Source: Pseudomonadota bacterium (GTDB lineage: Bacteria > Myxococcota > JACRCW01 > JAFGSX01). Taken from it: 18,420 nt of DNA. A program made the translations under genes and the position numbers. The notes beneath the pieces are model-generated. The model had not been told where the DNA came from and did not search any database. It was given only the letters and a program-made list of their open reading frames with translations. Positions 1,480 through 17,247 of this stretch are shown piece after piece; position 1 is the stretch's first letter, and every line of letters begins with the position of its first letter. The stretch is from NCBI GenBank assembly GCA_043821645.1, contig JBDRCO010000082.1, forward strand, positions 1 to 18,420. Reading direction: 5' to 3'.

Positions 1480-2470
1480 ACACCTCTGTGGGCGATCGTC
1501 GGCCGCGCTACGAGATCGAGGGCGGTCGTCGCTGAGGCTGGCTTGTGGACGCAAACAAGTGCCCCCTGTCGTCCACCGGTGACGACGACAACAACCCGGT
1601 CGGCCAGTCGGCGCTCGGGGATACAGCAGCGTGCCGTTGTTGCGCGCGAGGCTGTAGAACCAGGCATTCGAGGTGGGCGCGAAGGTGACGTGCACGACGC
1701 GGTCGGTGTCGACCAGAAGGCGGTGACGCCCATGTTGGTGACCCTCGTCAGTAGCACGTGCTCGTCCGTCCACTCCTTGGTCAGGTATCGAAAGATGACA
1801 GGCGGAAGGATGTCGAATCAGCCCGATCGAGCAACAACACCTTTCCGTCATGGCCGGCGGCAAAGCGATAGTCCCAGACGCCCGAGGTCGGAGAAGCCCG
1901 CTGTCCGCGTTGAGTACCTTGTAGACGTGGCCGCTGGCAGGCTCTCTTCCAACGGCGATGACGCCGTAGTTTGCGATGGGTGACGTGGCGGGCAGGTGGG
2001 CCTGACCTCGCAATGGAAAGTTCCCGGGTAGTTGACGCAGGGGCGCTCTGGCAAGCAGGTGTGGCCTCTGTCCTCGCCCGCGCACTCGTCCCAGTACACG
2101 CACAGGGTCCCATCGGCATTGCCGTCGTGGTAGCCAGGCGGGCACTCCCCACGGACAAAGGTGCTACTGCCGCTGCAACTCACCAGTAAGTCACTCGGTG
2201 GTGGCTGGCGGGGACGATCCACGCAGTCCAGGTATCCCGCGAACCCTGCCGCGCACGCGTCGCAGCTGTCACCCTGGTAGCCATCCGCACAGGCATATGC
2301 CCCGCTCGCGGAGTCGCAGGAGGTCGCGTGGCCATGGCAGGGATCTGCCTGGCAGAGATCCGCTGCGGCGTTGTCCACAGCGCCACCGTCCGTTGCCAAG
2401 CATCCATCAGTCTGCGCGTGTCCACGGCGGCAGCTCCCGCATCGAGCGCAGCAGCGGCGTCCTAGCTTGC
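1480..2470 (-). pseudogene. frameshifted, 5'-truncated EGF/Ca-binding EGF domain surface protein
   Basis: CQADPCHGHATSCDSASGAYACADGYQGDSCDAC (EGF/laminin-like) and DECAGEDRGHTCLPERPCVNYPGTFHC (cbEGF pattern) in ORF 1848..2753. Plausible coding continues in another frame (IANYGVIAVGREPASGHVYK…; RLLVDTDRVVHVTFAP…). The 5' side abuts an IS110 remnant. Boundaries approximate. Confidence 0.6.
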
Positions 2471-2479
2471 CACTCACGA

Positions 2480-3038
2480 TTGCCAGCACCACCCAACGCG
2501 CCATGAGGGCTTCTCCTTGGCAGGCTCGATCGCATGCGTATTGTCGTCGAGGCCAGCACCAAGTCGTTTTGGATGGCAAACCAGCTTGAGGCACTGGGGC
2601 ACGAGCCCGTCGTGGTGGGCCCTGGCCGCAAGAAGGCGATCGTCGCCATCGCGCGCAAGCTGGCAAGTGTGCTGTGGTCGATGTGGAAGCGAGAGAAGTC
2701 GTTCGATCCCATTTGTTCGACCTGGCGTGACGACGGAGAAATTTTAACGTCACCGCGGAGCCAAGGTGAAGTTTCGGCGGCCATCCACAGGATTGAGTGC
2801 GGCAGTTTCCATGTGTTCAAACGCCGAGTGGCTAATAGCACCGTTCTTTCGAAAACCAACCTGTGCCCGGGTATCAAGGCCCGACCCAGAGCACATGTCG
2901 ATGGCTGAGGAGACGCTCTCGACGACGACACCGGGGCTGCGCTGAACAAGTTGGAGGTCAGGAAGGGACGGCACGACAGCATTGCGATGGCGCGGGTGAG
3001 GTGAGGCTTTACTTGGCATGGCGGGCCGCTCTATCGAT
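2480..3038 (+). mobile_element. IS110/IS1111-family remnant, copy A: internally deleted transposase plus 3' non-coding end
   Basis: MRIVVEASTKSFWMANQLEALGHEPVVV (DEDD RuvC-like N-domain piece) joined to GRKKAIVAIARKLASVLWSMWK (IS110 C-terminal motif). 2724-3038 is homologous to 6704-7019. Left boundary approximate. Confidence 0.85.
2731..3038 (+). ncRNA. candidate bridge RNA/seekRNA region, copy A
   Basis: Non-coding 3' end of an IS110 transposase; colinear with 6711-7019; 35-nt identical block 2898-2932 = 6880-6914; imperfect stem 2789-2800/2838-2848. Confidence 0.55.
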
Positions 3039-3199
3039 GACACACTCCGGCGGGCTGGCGATGACCACATTGGTTTTTCCGGATCGCCTTGCTGGTATCC
3101 TTCGGACATGCGCGCATCAAGGCTCGGTCGACCGGTCACGCTCACCTGCAACCAACGAGAATACCTCGCGCAGCCCAGTTCAACCGGGAGGGACCTCCC

Positions 3200-3538
3200 A
3201 TGAGAAGAGCCTGGCGCGCCACCGCGATCATTGTCGTGACTCTTTTTCTCTCGACCCTCGGATACGTCTCTGTCTCTGCGTTCTATTACCGAATTCATCT
3301 CAACAACGACCCCATGGAGCACCGCTGGCGCAAGGCCAACGCTATGGGTGAGGCGCTGTGTCGCGAAGGACCGGTCGGGGCTGCGGTCTTTGCACTGGGT
3401 GGCTTGCTCCTGGGTTTCCGGATCACTCGTCGCCGGAGTGACTCCGCGTCAACGAAGCCCAAGGGCTCCCTGTCCGCCGGCACCGAGCGGGAAGAGGTGA
3501 TGGCAGCAAGACAGGGTGGTGCGGCCCCCCCCAAATAG
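3200..3538 (+). CDS. small membrane protein with two hydrophobic segments
   Basis: GGGAGGGA upstream of ATG 3200; hydrophobic AIIVVTLFLSTLGYVSVSAFYY and VGAAVFALGGLLLGF. Confidence 0.6.
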   Translation: MRRAWRATAIIVVTLFLSTLGYVSVSAFYYRIHLNNDPMEHRWRKANAMGEALCREGPVGAAVFALGGLLLGFRITRRRSDSASTKPKGSLSAGTEREEVMAARQGGAAPPK

Positions 3539-3666
3539 GTGCACCTGGAAAAATGGATGGCGTTACTTTTTGGTGCCAACTGGGCCACCATGCATCGGGC
3601 TGCAGAAAAGCACGCGCCCCGCAAGCGGGGCGCGTGGCGAGCATCGTGGGTCTGGTGGAAGCGCGG

Positions 3667-4977
3667 CTAACGCAGGTTACGCACTGCCGCCATCTGCATG
3701 TCGTGCATGCTCTTCATCACGTTCGAGAGCATCTCATACATCTTCTTCAGGTCTTCCATCAGCTTCTGCATCTGCATCTGCTTGAGGGCGTCCGAGGTCT
3801 TGTTCGGGTCTCCGAAGGCCCCCTGGGCCTTGGCTTGCTGGCCCTGCTCGGGGGTGAGGGCGCCCTGGTTGACCAGCTGATCGACCTGCTTGTTGTAAGC
3901 CTCGGTCTCGGCGGCAGTGGGCTGCCGCTGCGTCTGAACACCCGACTGCCCGAAGTCGCTGTTCAGCTTGGCCATCTGCATCTGCTTCAGGGTGTCACTG
4001 GCGTTCGGATTCGACATGATCTTGTTCGCGGCTGCGTTGTACTGGGCCTGCGCCTGCGGGTTGGCCGTCCCACCAGTGCCCCCAGCTGCCCCGGCTCCCT
4101 GTTCGGCCTGGGCACCCTGGGTGCCGTCCTTGCTGGACAGCTCGTTCATCTTGCCCAGGATCTCCTTCTCCTTCTTGCGCGCGTACTTCATCATCATCAG
4201 GAACAGCATGTCCTCGAAGCTGAGTGGCGGCGTCATGCCCATGCCCTCGGCGAGCTTCGAGGTCTCGGGATCGCTCAGCAGCGCCGCGTCACTCTGGGCG
4301 CCGGTGGTGCCCTGAGCGCCAACGCCATTCGAGCCGGTGGTGGCACCGCCCTTGGTCATGGACTGGGCCAGGTTCTTGATGTTGCCCTCGAGCCGTGCCA
4401 GTGCGCCGTACAGGCCGGACATCATCGGGTTGCCGGAGATCGCGCCGCTGAAGGGCACGCGGCCGAAGCGTGGCTTGAAGCGCAGAACGGTGATCTTGCC
4501 GTCGTTGCGGCCGTCGAGCTGGATGCGGCCGCCGAGGACCTTCTCCATGTGCGCGCGGAACGCCGGGTTGCGCTTGATCGCGCGCTCCATGCTGCGGCCG
4601 ACCATGCGGCCGACGAGACCCTTGCCACCCAGTTGCTGGCGGCTGGCCTGGAAGCTGCCGAAGGGCGTGGCGAAGCTCTGCCCCCACAGCTTGAGCCCCT
4701 TTGCCAGAGTCTTGCTGGGTGGCGGCATCCAGTGCGCGCCGGGTAGACCGCGGCCGAACACCCCGTCCATCTGGGTGCTGCTCATGCCCGAGGTCAGGTC
4801 CATCATGTTGCGGGCGTAGCCGGCCCAGTCCCCATTGGCGGCGTCGATCTGCGCGCCGATCATGTCGCCGATGTTGTCGGGCAGGCCCAGCGCATCGAGC
4901 ATGCGATTGGTCTGCATCCCGATGGAGCCCTCAGCCATGCGGTTCAGGCCGCCGCCGCCACCAAAGTTGCCGATCAT
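3667..4977 (-). CDS. Gly/Gln/Met-rich protein with type III secretion needle/filament-like C-terminal helix
   Basis: 436 aa, AGGAG RBS, strong codon bias. C-terminus QMQKLMEDLKKMYEMLSNVMKSMHDMQMAAVRNLR resembles SctF/EspA-type termini. No Sec signal peptide seen. Confidence 0.8.
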   Translation of the reverse strand: MIGNFGGGGGLNRMAEGSIGMQTNRMLDALGLPDNIGDMIGAQIDAANGDWAGYARNMMDLTSGMSSTQMDGVFGRGLPGAHWMPPPSKTLAKGLKLWGQSFATPFGSFQASRQQLGGKGLVGRMVGRSMERAIKRNPAFRAHMEKVLGGRIQLDGRNDGKITVLRFKPRFGRVPFSGAISGNPMMSGLYGALARLEGNIKNLAQSMTKGGATTGSNGVGAQGTTGAQSDAALLSDPETSKLAEGMGMTPPLSFEDMLFLMMMKYARKKEKEILGKMNELSSKDGTQGAQAEQGAGAAGGTGGTANPQAQAQYNAAANKIMSNPNASDTLKQMQMAKLNSDFGQSGVQTQRQPTAAETEAYNKQVDQLVNQGALTPEQGQQAKAQGAFGDPNKTSDALKQMQMQKLMEDLKKMYEMLSNVMKSMHDMQMAAVRNLR

Positions 4978-5032
4978 CGTGCTCTCCTGCGTCTGTGGAT
5001 GTGATCGTTCTAGTAAAACGTATCTTACCGCA

Positions 5033-5061
5033 TTATCGGTCCGAGATGTGGGTTGTCTTTA
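5033..5061 (-). promoter_or_regulatory. putative sigma28 (FliA/WhiG)-like promoter of the 436-aa gene
   Basis: Minus strand TAAA-N17-ACCGATAA versus consensus TAAA-N15-GCCGATAA, in an AT-rich patch ~55 bp upstream of the ATG. The spacer is 2 nt longer than consensus. Confidence 0.45.
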
Positions 5062-5213
5062 AAAAAATCAACAATTTCATGTGGTAGTTCCTCCTACCTG
5101 CGGTCCGTGCCCGGATCGGGCCAGAAACACACTAAAAATGCGCGACTTCTGGCGTGCCCGGGGTGCACCGAGCCTGCGGCACGGCACCAGAACGGGCGCC
5201 CAAAGAGGTGCAG

Positions 5214-5263
5214 GGAATAGGTGGCCCGTGGAATAGGTGGCCGTGGAATAGGTGGCTGGCACC
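5214..5263 (+). repeat. three direct copies of GGAATAGGTGGC ending in the imperfect palindrome GGTGGCTGGCACC
   Basis: Copies at 5214-5225, 5230-5241 and 5245-5256; palindrome 5251-5263. Confidence 0.85.
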
Positions 5264-5274
5264 GAACCGGGTGG

Positions 5275-5440
5275 CGCTGGTAAACGCACCGAGAAAGTAG
5301 ATGGCCGCGATCACCCGGGTGTCGAGCAGGCCGTGGTGGGCAGCAACCCCGGCACTGAGCAGCAGGGTCTCGCTCTGTATCAAGCTTCCGCCGAGCACAG
5401 CGAGGTAGCCATAGTGCTGGATCAGATCGGCCACGGTCAT
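5275..5440 (-). pseudogene. DedA-family membrane protein, N-terminal fragment
   Basis: MTVADLIQHYGYLAVLGGSLIQSETLLLSAGVAAHHGLL matches the DedA N-terminus (YGYxAV…EGETxLLxAG); GGAGAGG RBS. Similarity is lost after ~55 aa, next to the repeat cluster. Confidence 0.75.
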
Positions 5441-5500
5441 GACCTCTCCCGCGCGAGGATCATGTCACCTGAAACACATCGCCGCATGAGCACGCCAGCT

Positions 5501-5790
5501 GGTGCCATCGATAAACGACGGTGGGCTCGTGCCCCAGCGCTTCGAGCTGGTCCGCCATCCAGAAGGCCTTGGTGCTGGCCTCGACGACGATGCGCATGGC
5601 GCCGAGCTTGCCAAACACCTTCCTCAAAGCCTCTGGCTTGTTGCTGACCTTGCCCTCGCGCTGGACCTCGCGCTTCTCGTCGACGATACAGAAGTGACTC
5701 GACCTCTTGCCCATGTCCAGTCCACAATAGTTCAAGGTCGGCTCCTTTCCGCTGTGCCTCGAGCACGTTGCCCCCGGGAAAGGTGCCACC
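5501..5790 (-). mobile_element. IS110-family remnant, copy C: transposase N-terminus (TTG 5735) fused directly to the right-end sequence
   Basis: AAGGAG RBS, then LNYCGLDMGKRSSHFCIVDEKREVQREGKV…RIVVEASTKAFWMADQLEALGHEPTVV (catalytic D and E of the DEDD domain). It is followed at once by TTTATCGATGGCACC, identical to 7011-7025. Confidence 0.85.
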
Positions 5791-5844
5791 CGATTTTCAA
5801 CCTAGCAAAAACATACACTTACCCGTCCTCTTGCCCCCCATTCC

Positions 5845-5929
5845 CGGAAGAGGTGCCTGGCTCTCGGAAGAGGTGCCTGGCACTTTCCTCCGACTTTCCT
5901 CCGGGTGGTTACAGAGGGCTCTGTCCCCT
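5845..5929 (+). repeat. REP-like cluster: CGGAAGAGGTGCCTGGC x2, ACTTTCCTCCG x2, AGGGCTCTGTCCCCT
   Basis: 17-mers at 5845-5861 and 5865-5881; 11-mers at 5882-5892 and 5893-5903; imperfect palindrome 5915-5929. Confidence 0.8.
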
Positions 5930-5984
5930 GCTCTCTTGTGCAGTTCACTGCCACCACCAGGAGGACGAACGTGTCGGACGCGCG

Positions 5985-6428
5985 TCAGCCACCGGCGCCC
6001 TCAACGTCGTCTGGCGGATTCTTGAAGACACCCCCGTAGGCGTTTTCCCTGTCCACGATCAGCGGACGGCACTCGGTGACCGGCCCCCAGGCCTGCGACT
6101 TGGGGTCGTTCGAGGCCACCATCGGCAGACCTGCCTCCTGCCACCCCTTCACACCTTCCTCGTACACCTGGACATTGGTCATCCGAAGGTCTTGCAGGCG
6201 CACTGCGGCATCGGCTGCCAGGTGACACGCCCCACCGGCCGAGTAAACGACGACCAGCGAGTCCGGCTTCATGACGCTGGCAACCCGAAAGGTCAACGAA
6301 CCGAGAGGCGCGGTCATCGCACCTGGCAGGTGACCTTTCTCGAACTCCATGTCGCCTCGCACGTCAAACAGCGCCACCTTGCCGGTGTGCAGCAGCTCGT
6401 CCAGCCGCTCTGTCGTCATGTTGGTCAC
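5985..6428 (-). CDS. single-domain rhodanese-like protein
   Basis: LFDVRGDMEFEKGHLPGA, VVVYSAGGAC and VQVYEEGVKGWQEAGLP motifs; GAGGAGG RBS before GTG 6428. Confidence 0.9.
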   Translation of the reverse strand: MTNMTTERLDELLHTGKVALFDVRGDMEFEKGHLPGAMTAPLGSLTFRVASVMKPDSLVVVYSAGGACHLAADAAVRLQDLRMTNVQVYEEGVKGWQEAGLPMVASNDPKSQAWGPVTECRPLIVDRENAYGGVFKNPPDDVEGAGG

Positions 6429-6710
6429 GAAATCCTCCTCTGGACTCTGCGCCCTGTTGCCAGTGGATGTAGCTCAGGAGGGACAGGGCGGCAGCCGGCT
6501 GACGATCGAGATCCGGGCGAGGGTCCTCTGTGGGTCTGGGCCCCAGAAAAGGTGCCATCGAAAAAGTGGCTGCGTGACTGGGGTCTGGTGCTGGTCAAGC
6601 GCCTGGGCCGCAACAAGGCCATCGTCGCCATCGCGCGCAAGCTGGCGAGCGTGCTGTGGTCGATGTGGAAGAACGAGCGCGCGTTCGAGCCCATGTACGG
6701 CGTGGCGTGA

Positions 6711-7019
6711 CGACGGAGATTGCAGGTCACCGCGGAGCCCAAGGTGAGCCGTCGGAGGTCATCAAGAGGGTGGTGTGCGGCAGGTGCCATGGCAGGACAA
6801 CCGTGCCGATTGTGTGATGGCACCCACCCTTCGAATACCATCCTGTGCCCGGGCATCCAGGCCCGATAAAGAGCACCTATCGATGGCTGAGGAGACGCTC
6901 TCGACGACGACACCAGGGATCCGCTGAACAGGGAGGAGGTCAGGCAGGGGAGACACAGAACATAGCGATAGCTCGGGCGAGGTCAGGCTGTGCTTGACAT
7001 GGTGGGCCGCTTTATCGAT
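6711..7019 (+). ncRNA. candidate bridge RNA/seekRNA region, copy B
   Basis: 5' hairpin (CGACGG 6711/CCGTCG 6749; TCACC/GGTGA). Stem 6767-6778/6820-6830 encloses an internal loop containing AGGTGCCAT. A second domain has TATCGAT before hairpin GAGGAGACGCTCTC. Both loop motifs match the element junctions. Confidence 0.65.
6994..6999 (+). promoter_or_regulatory. outward-facing -35 hexamer (TTGACA) near the IS110 right end
   Basis: Perfect TTGACA 18 nt before the AT core; copy A has TTGGCA at the same place. IS110/IS1111 elements form junction promoters on circularisation. No convincing -10 identified. Confidence 0.5.
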
Positions 7020-7124
7020 GGCACCCTCTGTGGGCAGCTTTTGGGCTGGAAGTCATCACAGCCTGTCGGGTTTGTTCCCTCACCAGCACCCATAGTACAA
7101 TCAAGAGCCACGCCGGGAGGGTTC

Positions 7125-7811
7125 ATGAGGAAGCACCTGCAGCTCGCCATCCTTGCCTCTGGCCTGGTCTTTTCACTCGCGACAACAGGCCTGCCGGAGC
7201 CCGGAGAAGATGATGCGGGTGGTGGCGCCGATTCCGGCTCCGTGAATCAGGAATGCACCAACCCTGTTCAGGCGCCGACCGGCAGCGCCAGCCTCACCGG
7301 TGCGGACTTCACGCCAGTCGACGCCGTGGCCTTTGTCATGCGCCGACAGGACCTTGCGAGCGAGGCTGGCCAGGTGCCCTACATGACGAATCTGGAGATC
7401 AAGTTGACCGACTATCCCGGGGCCTGCGGTGTTGAAAACGCCGGTCTCAATGTGCGAGGTGCGCAGTGGTTCCGCCTGGCCCTGATCGCACCTTCGGAGT
7501 CAGAGTACCCAGCCCTGCCCATGCCAGGCACCTATGCCTGGAGCGATGCGCTGCCCATGCCCTGGGATACCTACACCTTTCGTGCCGGGTGGAAGATCTG
7601 GGACTGCAACCTCGACTGCGAGCCTTGTGGCCAGCTCGTCGCCGGAACACCCTCGGGGACATTGACCCTGACCGCGGTCAGCGAAAGCGAGGTCTCGGGC
7701 AGTTTCTCCTTTGATAGCGGCGGAGATGGTGTCTATTCGGGCTCCTTCACGGCCCCCATCTGCACTAGTGGCGTGCCCGAGGACGAGCGTTGCTGCTGGA
7801 CGGGTGAATAG
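7125..7811 (+). CDS. secreted Cys-containing hypothetical protein
   Basis: GGAGG RBS before ATG 7125; signal peptide MRKHLQLAILASGLVFSLA; C-terminal beta-rich SGTLTLTAVSESEVSGSFSF…YSGSFTAPIC. Confidence 0.8.
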   Translation: MRKHLQLAILASGLVFSLATTGLPEPGEDDAGGGADSGSVNQECTNPVQAPTGSASLTGADFTPVDAVAFVMRRQDLASEAGQVPYMTNLEIKLTDYPGACGVENAGLNVRGAQWFRLALIAPSESEYPALPMPGTYAWSDALPMPWDTYTFRAGWKIWDCNLDCEPCGQLVAGTPSGTLTLTAVSESEVSGSFSFDSGGDGVYSGSFTAPICTSGVPEDERCCWTGE

Positions 7812-7880
7812 AACGTCCCCTCACAGGTGCCAGCCACCCCTTCGGGTTGTGTCCATCGTCTGAACACCTTTTCGGGGAAT

Positions 7881-9317
7881 CTATCCTGGCGAACCTGTCC
7901 TGGAGGGCAGCCGCAGCACCGCCATCGGCACATAGGGCGCAAAAAAGTAAGTCAGACTTCGATAGTGCAGCCCTTGCACGATGGCCGCGTCGCGAACCAC
8001 GCCTGCCAGCTCTTCCAGAGCATCCGCCACATCGTGGTGCTCACCCAGCCGCTGCAGCTGCGCGCCCGCAGGCAGCCGACGTCGCAGGCGCACCTCGTCG
8101 AACAGGTCGGCGACGATGGCGGTCATCGCGATCAGCGACACCGGAGACAGCAGCCACAGGGGCGTCTGCACGAGGTGGATGACGACAAACCAGGCGAGCG
8201 TGGAGCCCAGCACGAAGGCTAGACTCTGCCACTGCAGGCGACGCCAGCTGGCACCGTGCTCGGTGACAAAACCCACCTGGCGCCGCCAGTAAAAAAGTCG
8301 CGTTGCGATCACGGCGACCAGCGTGATCACTGTCAGCTCAAAAGCCAGGTAGATGGTGCTCCCTGGTGCAAGACGGCGCGAGAGCTCGTGCAGCCAGTGG
8401 CTATCGAGCAGGCTCGCAAGCGTCGCGGGCACCATGCCCAGGCTGCTGGCCACGACTAGAGGCCAGGTGCCGCAGGTGGGCACTCGGACAGGCAGGGCGT
8501 CGGGCCCGTCATCGCCACGCCTCAGCAGCCACCAGGTGACGCCGACAAAACCGACGATCGCGGCGACCATCAGCACAAGCTGGATACCTGCCAGCGTCCC
8601 CTCGACCAGCATCTGCCGCAGCTGCACTACGACGCGGGGCAGGTCGAGTGCCAGATCGACCAGGATCAGCAGCACGAAGCCAGGTCCCACCCCATGCAGG
8701 TCGATCAGACGGGCCATGGCCACGCACAGACAGCTCGCGGCCACCAGGGTCACGACGCTGCCGGCGCGAAAGGCAAAACCAGCATTCACCAGCGGTTCGC
8801 CCATCACGTTGAGGGACTCGAAGTACACGGCCAGGCTCAGAGCCTGCACGCTGGCCACCAGGACACCGACAATCAGCGCGGCCCTCGTCAGGGCCGACCG
8901 CAGGGCCGGATCTCCGTGCCGACGGCAGCGCCACTGCGGCACCATCAGGGCGACCAACTCGACGAGGACAAAGGCAGAGATGAAGGGTGTGATACCGACG
9001 GCCAGTAGACTCACCCCTTGTGGGATCAAAAGACCGTCCAAGTGCAACATCTCGCGCAGCAGGTCGTGGCGCACAAAGGGCATCCAGACCAGCGAACTCA
9101 GCCAGACCGGCAACAGGCACAGCACGGTGACCGTCAACCGGCGGACCAGGTCGCGCGGCCAGCCTGCCTCGGCGGCCGGTGACGACGTGGACGCGTTCAG
9201 GGATGCGGCGACCAGTGCAGTGCCGCAGTCCGAGCAGTGCTCGACGCGGTCGTTGTACTCGGCGGGTTGACCCGTGCGTGTGCGATGGGGGCAATCGGGG
9301 TTGGTGCAGTGCTTCAT
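7881..9317 (-). CDS. divergent SecY-like membrane protein with N-terminal Cys4 (zinc-ribbon-like) motif and soluble C-terminal extension
   Basis: SLLAVGITPFISAFVLVEL (cf. SecY SIFALGIMPYITASII), ARLIDLHGVGPGFVLLI (GEQITERGIGNGISLII), LPVRVPTCGTWPLVVASSL (LPLKVNMAGVIPAIFASSI), LAPGSTIY (LQPGQPLY). N-terminus CTNPDC…CSDCG. Confidence 0.8.
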   Translation of the reverse strand: MKHCTNPDCPHRTRTGQPAEYNDRVEHCSDCGTALVAASLNASTSSPAAEAGWPRDLVRRLTVTVLCLLPVWLSSLVWMPFVRHDLLREMLHLDGLLIPQGVSLLAVGITPFISAFVLVELVALMVPQWRCRRHGDPALRSALTRAALIVGVLVASVQALSLAVYFESLNVMGEPLVNAGFAFRAGSVVTLVAASCLCVAMARLIDLHGVGPGFVLLILVDLALDLPRVVVQLRQMLVEGTLAGIQLVLMVAAIVGFVGVTWWLLRRGDDGPDALPVRVPTCGTWPLVVASSLGMVPATLASLLDSHWLHELSRRLAPGSTIYLAFELTVITLVAVIATRLFYWRRQVGFVTEHGASWRRLQWQSLAFVLGSTLAWFVVIHLVQTPLWLLSPVSLIAMTAIVADLFDEVRLRRRLPAGAQLQRLGEHHDVADALEELAGVVRDAAIVQGLHYRSLTYFFAPYVPMAVLRLPSRTGSPG

Positions 9318-10381: not shown

Positions 10382-11911
10382 CTAGGGTGCGTCGCGCACG
10401 CACATCACCGACTTGGTGCGACTCTTGAGATCGCGGTTGACCGCACCAGCTGAGCGGTTCAGATACCAGGCCTCGTCGAGAAACTGCGCGTTCGTTGTTG
10501 AGCACCAGACCGGATTGGTGACCGGGTTGGGGAAGACGCTTGGGTCGAGGTGGATGGTGATGGTTGTCCGATCCCACAGCACGCTCTGTCCCTCGAGCAC
10601 GCTGGGCAGTCGCCAGTCTGCAAAGCTGCCCCAGTCGAGGTCCGCGCAGTAGCTCAGGGCGGCTTGCCAGCTGACGCTGCTGGCCGAACCCGAGCTGCAA
10701 TCGGTACCGTCCTGACCCGCCAGGCAGCCCTGCCACATCAAGCCCATCGCGTTGTCGACCACCACGGGCTGCGTCAGCCCCTGGCGCACGAACCGCTCGC
10801 CGGCAGGTAGCGGGTAGGTCGCGGTGTGGCGCCGCACGCAGCGCACGCCGCTGGCGGTGGTTGTGGCGGCGACGGAGATGATTCCGGTCGTCCCCCCCAC
10901 GTAGTAAGCCCGGGTTGCATCCTCCGGGTCGGCGCTGATGCTCCAGTAGGTGGAGGCGACAGCGCCAGCGAAGAACGCGCTGTCGAGCGCTGGCGCGTAT
11001 CGTTCGAAGTGAACCGTGGTGGAGAGCTCGAAGCGGTCGGGGAGATGCCAGTCGGTGTGACCACCCCAGGCCAGCGTCTCGCATTGGTCGATGCTCTCGG
11101 TCCAGGTGTGGCTCGCCATCGTGCCATCGGTGCAGGCGGAACCCCGCAGCCCGCTGCTGCAACCTTGCCACATGAGCCCGGTGATGTTGTCGACGACGAC
11201 CGGTTCGCCGGCCACGAGTTCCGTCAGAAGGTACCGCTCGTTCGCCTGGTGTCCGAGATCCCAGCCGTACTGCGCGTCCTGTCCGCAGAACGGCGTGCTG
11301 CCGCAGGTGCCGAGCGCGACGTTGCCGGGGCAGGCGATGGCTGCTGCACCGTCGTAGCAAAGGCGTTGACCCGTGTCCGGCAGCGCAAATCCTGGCCCAA
11401 GTGGGTTGCAGTCGCGGGTTCCGCAGCCGGGTGACGTGCAGGCGCCGCCCTGGCAGATGTCGTAGTCCCGGTCGGGGACGGTGATCGTCGTACAGGGGGT
11501 GTATTCGATGGCCGCTGTGCAGTCGGCGGTCCACGCGTCGCCCCCTGACGTGTCGGGGGCGGGCCTATCCGCTGTCGCCTGGTCGGGGGTGCCGTGGTCC
11601 ATGGGCGCTGCATCGAGCAAGGTACCATCACTTGAGACTGTGTCGGTCGCTGCCGCCTCGGCTGCGCCGGTTTCCGCAACCCCCTCATCTGGCGTGTTCG
11701 CTTGGTCCCGGGCCAGGGTGTCGCAGATCGCATCGAAACCAAGGTCCTGGTGTGCGCGGTCGGTGAGGCCAGTGGCGGCGTCGACTTCGTCGAACGGTGG
11801 TGCGGCGTCAAACGCGCCGGCGGGGGGCGACCAAAATCCGCCGCGCATGCATGCCGACGCACAAGCTGCGGCGATGGATGACACAACGCAGATGCAGGCA
11901 TGGATTCGCAC
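10382..11911 (-). CDS. lipoprotein with two DUF1566 (Lcl C-terminal, C-type-lectin-like) domains
   Basis: GAGGAG RBS before GTG 11911; lipobox-like ACASAC; Asp/Ala linker; [11 protein letters not shown]; two VVDNxxGLMWQ…W..A…C..L..GG..DW.LP…CVR modules. Confidence 0.88.
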
Positions 11912-12393
11912 TGCTACGAGCTCCTCGCCGTGCGACGCGCTTGTGGCCGAATGTGTCACCCGCGTCGACGCCTGCCGTAGGAAGCATGAAGTGCCTTCCC
12001 GTCGCCGACCTCGGGTACACGCCCCTCGTGGTCCGTCTACACACCCATCTTCGGCTATTGTAACACGTCCTCTCAACCCACTGAAACGGCGCCAGTGCGT
12101 AGCCTGAGCAAACGGGCACCCGCTGTCATTTCTCTGCGGCACATACGTGCTGCGTGTGACGTCCTCAGCAGCACCCGAACGCCAGCTCGGCCTGGGGAGG
12201 TGCTCGCGCCGGGGCGATCGAGAAGGACACCGGTCAGATAGCGCCTGGGCTTCACGTCTCTGGTTCGAGGGGAGAGTCCACAATCGACACCCCCCGTCGC
12301 CAGCAGGGGCTACCATCTGGATCATGACCAACGAGTCCCCCAAAACTGTGGCCTTGCCCCGATTCGGTGGACACCTGATAGAAGGAGTTCATC

Positions 12394-12678
12394 ATAGGAA
12401 GGCCGCCCAAGTTCAGCGAGGAGTTCAAGCGCGAGGCCGTCAGGCTGATCGAGGCCGGGCAGCCGTTGGAGCAGGTCGCCGTGGACCTCGGCGTGGGTCA
12501 CTCGTCGCTGTCTCGGTGGAGGAGACACGACGGAATGGCTATCGATGCGCCCACGCCTGTGGATGGCGACGACCTCCGCGAGGAGAACGCACGACTGCGC
12601 AAGCGCGTCCGTGAGCTTGAGGAGGAGCGTGAAATCATAAAAAAAGCCACGGCCTTCTTCGCGAAGGAAAGCAGATGA
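12394..12678 (+). CDS. IS3 transposase OrfA (HTH); start codon appears mutated to ATA
   Basis: AAGGAG RBS then ATA GGA AGG CCG CCC AAG…; KFSEEFKREAVRL…QVAVDLGVGHSSLSRW…EENARLRKRVRELEEEREIIKKATAFFA. Confidence 0.85.
   Translation: MGRPPKFSEEFKREAVRLIEAGQPLEQVAVDLGVGHSSLSRWRRHDGMAIDAPTPVDGDDLREENARLRKRVRELEEEREIIKKATAFFAKESR
12639..12646 (+). promoter_or_regulatory. -1 programmed frameshift slippery site AAAAAAAG
   Basis: A-AAA-AAA-G in the orfA frame; the -1 frame is open (SHGLLREGKQ) into orfB. orfA/orfB also overlap as ATGA at 12675-12678. Confidence 0.75.
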
Positions 12679-13550
12679 GATGTGCTTTCATCGACGTGGA
12701 GAAGGCCCATCACGCGGTCGAGACGCTGTGTCGAGTCCTGCAGGTTTCACGCAGCGGCTTCTACGCCTGGAAAAGCAGGCCAGAATCGGCTCGAACCGTG
12801 CGCGACCGGCAGCTCAGCGCGAAGATTCGCGTGTTCCACGCTCAGAGCCGAGGCCGAGACGGCAGCCCGATGATTCACCGCGACCTGCGAGACGACGGAG
12901 AACGCGTTGGTCGCAAGCGTGTGGCCAGACTGATGAGGCAGCAGAATCTGGCAGGCCGGAAGAAGCGTCGATTTCGCAGGACCACGAACTCGGAACACAA
13001 GCTTCCGATCGCTCCCAATCTGCTCGAACGCCGATTTGACGCTGCGGCGCGCGATCAGGTGTGGGCGGCCGACATCGCTTACGTCCGCACCTGGGAAGGG
13101 TGGCTCTACCTCGCCGTGGTCATCGATCTGTACTCTCGACGCGTCGTCGGATGGTCCGTGGCGAACCACCTGCGGACCGAGTTGCCTCTGACTGCTGTGC
13201 ACAAGGCGCTGCTCCTCCGTCGCCCACCAGCCGGCCTCCTGCACCACTCCGACCGAGGGTGCCAGTACGCCGCCGAGGCCTACCAGAGCCTCTTGGCCAG
13301 CCACGGCGTCACTCCGAGCATGAGCCGCAAGGGCAACTGCTGGGACAACGCGGTGGTCGAGAGCTTCTTCTCGACCCTCAAGGAAGAGCTCATCGACCGG
13401 GGCGCGTGGGCCACGCGTCGCGACGCAGAGCGCGCCATCGCCGACTACATCGAGAACGACGACAACCGCTATCGACGACACTCGTCGAACGGCTACGTGA
13501 GCCCAGTGAAGTACGAGAATCCAGGACTGGCAGTGAAACGAGCAGCGTAG
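12675..13550 (+). CDS. IS3 transposase OrfB (integrase-like DDE)
   Basis: WAADIAYV, HHSDRGCQY and GNCWDNAVVESFFSTLKEE motifs. Confidence 0.95.
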   Translation: MRCAFIDVEKAHHAVETLCRVLQVSRSGFYAWKSRPESARTVRDRQLSAKIRVFHAQSRGRDGSPMIHRDLRDDGERVGRKRVARLMRQQNLAGRKKRRFRRTTNSEHKLPIAPNLLERRFDAAARDQVWAADIAYVRTWEGWLYLAVVIDLYSRRVVGWSVANHLRTELPLTAVHKALLLRRPPAGLLHHSDRGCQYAAEAYQSLLASHGVTPSMSRKGNCWDNAVVESFFSTLKEELIDRGAWATRRDAERAIADYIENDDNRYRRHSSNGYVSPVKYENPGLAVKRAA

Positions 13551-13832: not shown

Positions 13833-14243
13833 TCACCTGGCTCTGACACGGTTGTTCTTGGGATTGTGTTCGAGCTCGCAAAGACCAAGCTCCTCCAGCA
13901 ATGGCGGGATGTAGACGCCGAACCGCCCCCGCAGCCCCTTCTTCAGGCCATACCAGCCCCCAACTGGATTGCTGGTCGAGCGTCCCCACGCTTCGACCGT
14001 GCCCTCCTTCGCGGGTTTCATCTCGTCAGCACCGCCGAGGTCGACCCAGTCCCCCGCCTTCTTGAGCATGATGTGCAGATCCTCGATGCACCTGGCGTCG
14101 TAGTGGAGCACTGTTTTTCCGACAGTACATACGAGAATCTTTCTTCCATCCTTCTCGTCAACATGCATCGTGTACTCGGATGTTCCGGGCGCTGTCTTGA
14201 GCTTCCAGGGTGTGTCCTTGGTACGGTTCAGCGAAGATGCCAT
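13833..14243 (-). CDS. conserved hypothetical protein, DUF6855-like
   Basis: PWKLKTAPGTSEYTM, GTVEAWGRSTSNPVGGWYGLKKGLRGRFG.YIPPLLE.LGL.ELEHNPKNNR motifs; GGGAGA RBS. Family name is from recall. Confidence 0.8.
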   Translation of the reverse strand: MASSLNRTKDTPWKLKTAPGTSEYTMHVDEKDGRKILVCTVGKTVLHYDARCIEDLHIMLKKAGDWVDLGGADEMKPAKEGTVEAWGRSTSNPVGGWYGLKKGLRGRFGVYIPPLLEELGLCELEHNPKNNRVRAR

Positions 14244-16059: not shown

Positions 16060-17247
16060 TCATCCTGCCCCCGTTGTGGCGTGCCCCGGTCGCCACGACA
16101 AACCGACCATAGAAATGACACAAAAAACTGCCCCGGCGTAAAACGTGAATGCGGCGCCAGCCTGATCCCAAAGCAGACCGGCGATGACGCTTGCCACGAG
16201 CATGGCAATTCCGCTCATCAGGTTGAAGAAGCCGAAGGCCGTTCCCCGCAGATCCGCTGGGGCCGCAACTGCGACCATTGCTGCAAACAGACCCTGAGTC
16301 ATTCCCATGTGGACGCCCCACAAGCCGACACCTGCGAGCAGGATGGCCCAATGAGTACTCGCCGCCAGCGTCAGATCGGCAGCAATCAGGACGACCAGGC
16401 CGAGCGCCAGAAGGCGCGTGTGATTCATGCGGTCGGAGAGTTTTCCGAAGGGGTAGGCCGATGCGGCATAGACAATGTTCATCGCCACCATGACCAGAGG
16501 CACCAGGGCCAGCGGAATCTCAGCCTGCCGGGCACGCAATACCAGAAAGGCTTCGCTGAAGCGAGCCAGGGTGAAGACGGCACCGACGCCGACCACCCAC
16601 CAGTAGTCGCTACCAAGGCGCCGGAGATTTTCTCTCTTTATCGGATTCGTGCGGTGCGTTCTTGCGTGGCGTTTTTCTCCCCTCAAGCCGAAGAACAGCA
16701 GGGCAACGGACATGCTTCCGGGAATAGCCGCCACCCAGAAGACTGCGCGGAAATCGTTGGACCAAAGCAGCATCAGACCGACCGCGAGTAACGGGCCTAC
16801 AAAAGCGCCGACGCTATCCAGGGACTGCCGAAGACCAAACGCCGCCCCCCGAATTTCGAGCGGTGCGAGGTCTGCGATGAGCGCGTCTCTGGGCGCGCCA
16901 CGGATCCCCTTGCCGAGCCGGTCGATCAGCCGCGCGCCAAAGACATGACCAGCCGTGAGCGCCATCGCGAAAAGGGGCTTGGCCAGAGCACCCATGGCGT
17001 AGCCGAGTACAGCCAAAGCCTTGCGTTTCCCGAGGTAGTCGCTCAGCGCACCCGAGAAAACCTTGACCATCAGTGCCGTCGATTCGGCGAAACCTTCGAT
17101 GACGCCGACAGCCAAAGCGCTCGCTCCGAGCGTCGTGACCATGAAGAGCGGCAGCAGGCTGTGAATCATCTCAGAGGAGATATCCATCAGCATGCTCACA
17201 AAACCGAGGACCCAAATGCCTGGCGGGACCTTGAGTCTTGGCGTCAC
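16060..17247 (-). CDS. MFS transporter
   Basis: 395 aa with ~12 hydrophobic segments; motif A GALSDYLGKRK and GKLSDRMNH; DRLGKGIRGAPRDALIAD. Confidence 0.95.
   Translation of the reverse strand: MTPRLKVPPGIWVLGFVSMLMDISSEMIHSLLPLFMVTTLGASALAVGVIEGFAESTALMVKVFSGALSDYLGKRKALAVLGYAMGALAKPLFAMALTAGHVFGARLIDRLGKGIRGAPRDALIADLAPLEIRGAAFGLRQSLDSVGAFVGPLLAVGLMLLWSNDFRAVFWVAAIPGSMSVALLFFGLRGEKRHARTHRTNPIKRENLRRLGSDYWWVVGVGAVFTLARFSEAFLVLRARQAEIPLALVPLVMVAMNIVYAASAYPFGKLSDRMNHTRLLALGLVVLIAADLTLAASTHWAILLAGVGLWGVHMGMTQGLFAAMVAVAAPADLRGTAFGFFNLMSGIAMLVASVIAGLLWDQAGAAFTFYAGAVFCVISMVGLSWRPGHATTGAG

Follow-up and report, generated by a model that had tools for sequence, protein, structure and literature searches.

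The window analysed here, positions 1-18,420 of contig JBDRCO010000082.1 (18,420 nucleotides (nt), forward strand, assembly GCA_043821645.1, from a bacterium that GTDB places in the Myxococcota), harbors two related non-coding regions, copy A and copy B, which we identified as the 3′ non-coding ends of defective insertion sequences of the IS1111 group (IS110 family). By analogy with published members of the family, these ends are taken to encode the bridge RNA or seekRNA of the element. A sequence-only reading of the window had taken A for another copy of the RNA, diverged but with its scaffold kept, and had suggested that it is naturally retargeted. The diverged copy and the kept scaffold are supported by our analysis, and the changed letters do occupy real guide positions, as their covariation with the flanking DNA among relatives demonstrated; the retargeting is not supported, since the right flank of A agrees with its own guide 1 at only one of six positions. 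The most probable account, in our judgement, is that positions 2517-3039 are an immobile relic of an IS1111-group insertion sequence, carrying a strongly diverged, structurally intact allele of the target module as a non-functional leftover.

The two copies are colinear, as the sequence-only reading had found: 2731-3045 in A corresponds to 6708-7020 in B over the whole length with 79% identity, and BLAST aligned 2624-3047 with 6606-7028 at 79.5% identity over 429 columns. The 35-nt block that had been reported as identical (2898-2932 = 6880-6914) occurs exactly twice in the window, where shuffles gave an expectation of 0.00 even when three mismatches were tolerated. Both copies follow the last codons of a transposase gene (..KAIVAIARKLASVLWSMWK..), and we found 13 matching pieces, mostly at contig ends, in the genome of the window (G000, 140 contigs). 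The Transposase_20 domain (PF02371, cut-off 21.3 bits) was recognized in the sister copies C109 (84.8 bits) and C122 (81 bits); A and B retain only the transposase tail beyond this domain, and Pfam finds nothing in either. Fragments of the DEDD domain (PF01548) lie at four places in the genome, one of them at 5568-5726 on the minus strand of the window (28.2 bits against a cut-off of 29, E 6.3e-6); all are fragments, with no full-length gene on one contig. About 35 residues of this RuvC-like domain are left in copy A itself. The Rfam 15 gathering scan of the whole window gave no match, nor did Pfam find any family in the long open reading frames (ORFs) around A and B (including 5502-6710 and 2534-2908); we rejected these ORFs as genes, as they are read-through artefacts of GC-rich DNA and short transposase tails.

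The ends of the element could be defined from other copies in the same genome. True left ends (C5, C66 and C67) show the flank GGTGCC, then TG, then ATGGAGTAAAGCGGCC, while right ends read GGCCGCTTTATCGA, then TG, then GCACC. When occupied junctions (GGTGCC-TG-ATGGAG.. and ..TATCGA-TG-GCACC) were compared with empty sites (GGTGCC-TG-GCACC), the overlap was exactly TG; insertion is site-specific, with no target duplication past this shared core. A perfect palindromic target with central ATCGAT, which we had also considered, was ruled out by the true left ends and the empty sites, which give TG as the core. Copy A does not extend to 3045, where the sequence-only reading had placed its limit; the element stops at 3037 and is followed by the core at 3038-3039. 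Subterminal inverted repeats (left ..TAAAGCGGCC, right GGCCGCTTTA..) lie a few bases inside both tips in the copies of this genome and in relatives, and the non-coding stretch between the stop position and the right tip measures about 307-310 nt in A, B and C122, and likewise in the relatives L027-L034. The assignment to the IS1111 group is based on the Transposase_20 matches and DEDD fragments and on these subterminal repeats, together with the downstream non-coding region of about 310 nt, the two-base core and the repeat targets.

We reconstructed the anatomy of the RNA from relatives, of which 10 loci, in uncultured Myxococcota-like genomes (36-63% identity), came from a protein search and 33 from scanning metagenomes for the donor-loop motif; the structure alignment comprised 25 non-identical RNAs. 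A DNA search of 60 related genomes with the non-coding end of B returned no match. The consensus structure consists of a 5′ hairpin, a target-binding module and a donor-binding module, and 96.1% of its cells are standard pairs. Compensatory changes were found in 15 of 29 pairs, against 4.3 +/- 1.2 in shuffled alignments; none of 500 shuffles reached the observed value, and slid controls gave 1-9.

Guide 1, made up of the 10 nt that follow GUGCG, matches the core TG and the right flank in reverse complement, as seen in the pairs GGGUGCCA with TGGCACCC, GGGGUCA with TGACCCC, UUUGGACA with TGTCCAAA and UGGGGACA with TGTCCCCA. At least four of six positions match the right flank in 18 of the 20 non-redundant elements other than A. 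Scores between unrelated pairs are also high (mean 3.18/6), because many elements share the GGCACC target, and the guide 1 argument rests on the elements with distinct targets. Guide 2, 5 nt plus UG located 3 nt ahead of GCAC, copies the left flank and the core; among 12 elements the five flank positions match fully in eight, at four positions in three and at three in one (unrelated pairs, mean 2.31). Before these counts and that of the donor loop were made, duplicates with the same guide and flank were reduced to one, a shift by one was applied to the four elements whose spacing is 9 nt, the guide of L036 was re-read by hand, and loci whose fetched stretch, at contig ends, had no loop or end were omitted. 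The two elements that mismatch their right flank, the metagenome loci L049 (1/6) and L054 (3/6), have a guide 2 that fits the left flank at 4/5 and 5/5 positions, respectively, and may be half-matched insertions or later rearrangements. The donor loop, G-UAUCGA-UG-NN, copies the right end (..TTATCGA-TG) and the core, and in 17 of 29 elements its NN is identical to the first two bases of the flank, which holds for all four in which NN is not GC. In this, the letters beyond the core resemble the 'handshake' guides of IS621/IS110 elements, which likewise match the partner DNA. The IS621/IS110 core is CT, whereas it is TG here.

The scaffold of copy A's target module is preserved. Both arms of the first stem read as had been quoted, and all nine consensus pairs are standard in A; two of these are kept by double changes and one by a wobble, A being alone among the 25 RNAs in having A-U at 41/117, U-G at 42/116 and G-U at 40/118. 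Neither the loop lengths nor the invariant motifs (GAGUGCG, GCACC, UGUGCCCGGG and AGAGCAC) have changed. The loops stand where the sequence-only reading had placed them (AGTTTCCAT at 2804-2812 in A, AGGTGCCAT at 6782-6790 in B), and the inner hairpin is indeed replaced in A by GTGT-TCAA-ACGC (2813-2824), with four columns fewer than in B. Guide 1 reads AGUUUCCA in A and AGGUGCCA in the sisters; guide 2 reads GUGGC-UA in A, GUGUC-UG in C122 and UUGUG-UG in the B-type. The donor-like motif TGTCGAT (2896-2902) and the right end TATCGAT (3032-3038) were also confirmed; the 3′ strand of the donor module, UGUCGA-UG-GC (2896-2905), copies the right end and the core and a further 2 nt of right flank, and the donor guide UGUCGA differs from A's own end TATCGA by one G-T wobble.

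Other features of A point to loss of function. The change of the guide 2 core from G to A is unique to it, the core being UG in 24 of 24 other aligned RNAs, and is one of five A-specific changes at positions invariant in all 13 RNAs compared. Another of the five breaks the closing pair of hairpin P1 (16/30), leaving A as the sole unpaired cell there. Consensus pairs are standard in 32 of 37 cases in A, against 36-37 in seven sisters, and A folds no better than shuffled sequences (z = +0.08, against -1.82 for B, which has 36 of 37 pairs standard).

The sequence-only reading had noted that the left junction of A is lost, which is correct, and that its target therefore cannot be verified, which does not hold. 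The loop that reads AGGUGCCA in the sisters corresponds, as reverse complement, to the core TG and the right flank, and the right flank of A is present and thus testable. Guide 1 of A predicts TGGAAACT whereas the actual right flank is TGACACAC(T), that is TG-ACACAC, a match of 1/6. This flank resembles the ordinary target found beside sisters C25 and C105 (TGACACCTTTTC), and TG-ACACAC(T) is a variant of the usual repeat target of the family, an outcome close to the one that the sequence-only reading had itself named as refuting its proposal. The sequence TGGAAACT occurs 37 times in the genome, never beside a right end. The full predicted target, GTGGCTGGAAACT, gave eight scattered hits at one mismatch or fewer, none of them repeat-like, against 23 for the C122-type prediction, and its variant with core TA gave four. 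We did not find a second A-type loop among the other 12 genome pieces or the 33 metagenome loci. The A-type donor motif was found only at 2888-2910 of the window, all 33 metagenome loci reading GUAUCGA, and the donor-loop pattern had a single match (G096) in 400 other genomes of the phylum, which is not A-type. The A-type copies that the sequence-only reading had proposed to look for elsewhere were thus absent from the genome, the 400 phylum genomes and the metagenome scan. Retargeting is unsupported by the one testable flank, and a change of target is not shown.

The relic would have arisen from an element that worked as follows. In intact relatives, guide 1 would recognize the core TG and right flank on the top strand, and guide 2 the left flank and TG on the bottom strand, in each case by pairing, while the donor-binding module would copy the element ends; the DEDD recombinase would then recombine the excised circle with the target at TG. 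Covariation shows the base-pairing pattern itself, and the RNA, its binding by the recombinase, the chemistry and the activity are presumed from published family members. In copy A, the non-coding right end of about 310 nt that would encode this RNA has survived, and the left end and most of the transposase gene have been lost. Its target-module allele would most likely derive from a once-active sister lineage, or have come by recombination, and then have been stranded in a dead copy. As the copy sits in the ordinary repeat target of the family, the allele probably did not direct this insertion, and the UA core in guide 2, the broken P1 closing pair and the altered donor guide argue for a non-functional leftover.

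Guide variation is seen among the sister copies as well. The B-type guide 2, UUGUG-UG, fits a second repeat family, TCGTG-TG-ACACCTTTT, and a left junction TTCGTG-TG at C112:8303, and the C122-type, GUGUC-UG, fits the near-palindromic repeat GGTG[C/T]C-TG-GCACC. Members of the second family, (A)TTCGT[G/C]-TG-AC[A/C]CCTTTTCTGGG, were observed at C112:358, C112:8303, C16:1216 and C128:8546, among others. Sister subfamilies of the same insertion sequence thus appear, within a single genome, to be tuned to different repeats, and their guide 2 differences are expected behaviour of the family rather than a new principle.

Several observations weigh against reading A as a leftover that never chose this site, and would favour true natural retargeting, in which sites resembling GTGGC-TG-GAAACT are, or once were, the targets to which the RNA of an A-type subfamily directs insertion; A could then have been mobilised in trans by a sister recombinase-RNA complex, or its loop acquired by gene conversion after insertion, with the UA change coming later. 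The target module of A is only 61-66% identical to eight sisters, whereas its other segments are 82-96% identical to the best sister; in C122, by comparison, the target module shares 82-87% identity with the B-type, much as the remainder of that copy does. A-specific positions make up about 20-25% of 2790-2860 and are absent from 2640-2700 and 2900-2960 (about 120 nt). The differences of A avoid columns that are invariant in relatives (5/56 against 38/115; Fisher p = 6e-4), and in a simulation five random substitutions in the B-type stem left at least six of seven pairs in 5% of trials. Because the target loop is far more diverged than the neighbouring segments, uniform decay after insertion cannot explain the pattern, and this contrast in identity, with the kept stem pairing, makes the loop look like a diverged allele. 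The clustering, the pairing and the avoidance of invariant columns would fit a functional diverged lineage, and the guide letters may be its real guides. Six GTGGC-TG-GCACCT sites, of which the window contains one, have a left half equal to guide 2 (GUGGC), as does a left junction at C3:62379, and the sister subfamilies vary guide 2 in step with their repeats. A non-autonomous copy placed by a sister's RNA could uncouple its flank from its own guide, two of the 20 relatives (L049 and L054) mismatch their flanks too, and in A only the right junction bears on the guides of an RNA that is itself deduced by analogy. However, we consider retargeting unlikely: apart from the mismatched right flank, the missing second A-type copy and the scattered hits of the predicted target, the guides of A are inconsistent about the core, one having CA and the other UA.

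Plain neutral decay, in which A was once B- or C122-type and all its differences, guides included, are random changes since its death, seems very unlikely: the element is indeed dead (internal deletion, frameshift, no left end), its fold stability is lost, its flank fits a sister guide better than its own, and of 29 A-specific changes five fall in universally invariant columns where 9.5 would be expected if uniform, which is about chance, but the strong clustering of the changes, the divergence of the target loop and the retained stem pairing make simple decay, which the sequence-only reading had itself raised, a poor fit.

Table 1. Features of the IS1111-group relics and of target-like sites in the window.
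Feature	Position	Strand	Basis or remark
Relic A, N-terminal (DEDD/RuvC-like) transposase fragment	2517..2616	+	Reads ..MRIVVEASTKSFWMANQLEALGHEPVVV; 82-89% identical to other copies
Relic A, internal-deletion joint (about 2612-2629) and last ~35 transposase codons	2617..2730	+	Alignments, translation
Relic A, hairpin P1 (GGUGA...CCAUC)	2765..2785	+	Consensus structure; closing A-U is A-C in A
Relic A, target-binding loop module, arms 2790-2800 and 2838-2846 round an internal loop	2790..2846	+	9/9 stem pairs standard
Relic A, guide 1 (GCAGUUUCCA)	2802..2811	+	Guide-flank table; predicted right flank TGGAAACT
Relic A, inner hairpin of target loop, shortened and replaced (GUGU-UCAA-ACGC)	2812..2826	+	Alignment
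Relic A, guide 2 (GUGGC + UA)	2828..2834	+	Relatives: 5 nt of left flank and core TG; A has A for core G
Relic A, donor-binding module, stem CUGUGCC/AGAGCAC, terminal hairpin CGGG(U)...(G)CCCG	2847..2912	+	Consensus helices 4 and 5
35-nt block	2898..2932	+	Identical in A and B; conserved across all sister copies
Relic A, right end: TTGGCA 3013-3018, repeat GGCCGCTCTA 3024-3033, tip TATCGA 3032-3037, core TG 3038-3039	3013..3039	+	Aligned right ends
Relic A, right flank ACACACTCCGGCGGGCT	3040..3056	+	Diverged member of the family's target repeat (sisters ACACCTTTTCGGGGGG, GCACCTTTTC...)
Third relic, part of left non-coding end and first ~80 transposase codons	5506..5771	-	PF01548 match, alignment
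Unoccupied target-like site GGTGCC-TG-GCACTT	5872..5885	+	Within 1 kb of relics
Relic B, last ~50 transposase codons, near-intact RNA gene, right end	6559..7020	+	
Relic B, stop codon	6708-6710		
Relic B, guide 1	6780-6789		
Relic B, guide 2 (UUGUG-UG)	6810-6816		
Relic B, right end	to 7018		
Relic B, core TG	7019-7020		
Unoccupied target-like site GGTGGC-TG-GCACCT	7825..7838	-	Left half equals A guide 2; within 1 kb of relics

The relics of the window are broken in different ways (Table 1). In A, homology to other copies begins at 2517, the left end and the first ~45 codons being gone; the non-coding end is complete up to 3037. Its transposase tail, 96% identical to that of copy C109, contains a 2-nt insertion near 2713, because of which the stop codon homologous to that of B (2728-2730) is out of frame and the spurious ORF 2534-2908 crosses the RNA. 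On its left side, B carries an inverted scar of a right-end tip (6559-6566) adjoining a repeat half (6550-6558). The whole border, GGTGCCATCGAAAAAG (6551-6566), reads on the opposite strand as a right-end junction, CTTTTTCGA-TG-GCACC. What had been read as the left junction of B, with AGGTGCCAT, is this inverted scar and not a left end, which is why the guide sequence seemed to stand in the left flank of B. Read in reverse complement, the border continues as CTTTTTCGA-TG-GCACCTTTTCTGGGG, a right-end tip and target half, and its geometry, with the oppositely oriented third relic at 5506-5771, would fit an inversion or deletion between copies. The third relic, which has no RNA gene, is fused directly to the last 10 nt of a right end (TTTATCGA-TG) with flank GCACC at 5501-5505; upstream of it, at 5777-5794 on the minus strand, we observed another scar resembling a right junction, ATCGGG-TG-GCACCTTTCC. 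Such right-end-tip scars recur at several breakpoints. Three independent deletion derivatives (relic A at 2612-2629, the third relic at 5516-5528 and a 170-nt mini element at C67:1716-1886) break no more than about 15 nt after ..GGGCACGAGCCC, near codon 80, and rejoin at different downstream points; the common breakpoint may be a deletion hot spot or a pseudo-site.

A conserved TTGAC(A) was observed 17 nt before the ..GA-TG of the right tip (6993-7020, 3013-3039 and L027-L034). The TTGGCA of A (TTGACA in the sisters) could serve as a -35-like promoter box, and at a circle junction the AT of the left end would complete a GATGAT -10 box, giving a putative junction promoter as described for the IS1111-type family. 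A scan of 2400-7200 for sigma-70-type promoters gave three weak sites, none positioned to drive the RNA. Of two metatranscriptome runs belonging to the study that produced the DNA, one yielded contigs at 3754-4414 only and the other yielded none; the RNA genes were uncovered, which is no evidence either way.

The neighbourhood contains a second, unrelated mobile element, an ORF at 12675-13550 on the plus strand with HTH_21 and an rve integrase core (E 5e-25), which is an IS3-type transposase. On the minus strand we annotated a cysteine-rich ORF with weak EGF-like matches at 1848-2753, which probably starts near 2506, right beside the truncated left edge of relic A, as well as ORFs matching SecY (7881-9317, 69 bits with partial cover of the profile), an Lcl C-terminal domain (10382-12343), DUF6855 (13833-14243) and an MFS transporter (16060-17247).

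These features are similar to those of the IS1111-group seekRNA elements ISEc11, ISKpn4, ISPa11 and ISPst6, as far as the portion of Siddiquee et al. (2024, PMC11187229) drawn on here describes them. Those elements have a DEDD transposase, represented here by fragments of its N-terminal domain, and share with ours the PF02371 C-terminal domain, the subterminal repeats and the long downstream non-coding region, and their seekRNAs place the segment complementary to the top strand 5′ of the bottom-strand one, the two overlapping at the crossover, with insertion into repeats. In contrast to the elements in that portion of the paper, ours come from uncultured Myxococcota-like genomes, use TG as the core, include relics without a working transposase and are known from sequence alone; their targets are the repeats GGTG[C/T]C-TG-[G/A]CACC and TCGTG-TG-ACACC. 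According to the section of Durrant et al. (2024, PMC11208160) that concerns this group, bridge RNAs are predicted in the right end of 93% of IS1111 elements. The IS621/IS110 bridge RNA has a target and a donor internal loop with two guides each that share a core dinucleotide, as we found here, but our family differs in having the RNA downstream (3′) of the recombinase gene, the top- and bottom-strand guides in reverse order and long subterminal repeats. Solo RNA modules, one of them linked to a 3′ fragment of the transposase gene, have been described for ISPpu9/Ssr9 of Pseudomonas putida KT2440, in the excerpt of Pares-Guillen et al. (2025, PMC12288879) that we rely on. ISPpu9 is also an IS110-family element located in repetitive palindromes, and its transposase-less modules resemble relics A and B, which consist of the tail, the RNA and the right end. 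Unlike the modules in that excerpt, however, our relics are bounded by deletions or scars, with no second pair of ends and no sign of movement.

RNA-guided IS110/IS1111 recombinases are under development as programmable tools for genome insertion, and the element family described here provides a clean natural data set, with about 25 RNAs whose flanks allow both target guides, the donor guide and the TG core to be read. In one genome, sister subfamilies have a second guide that tracks different repeat families. Copy A is a caution in this respect: a changed guide in a relic is no evidence of a changed target unless the flanks agree, and here they disagree. A broader idea, one that we regard as improbable, is that co-resident IS1111-type elements diversify the target loop as a fast-evolving or exchangeable module, that A is an unsampled allele (for sites near GTGGC-TG-GAAACT) and so a case of natural retargeting, and that transposase-less relics like A and B could supply guide RNAs in trans and redirect a resident recombinase. 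Should the odd target loop of A turn out to be live, modular evolution of guides would be on record as a natural process.

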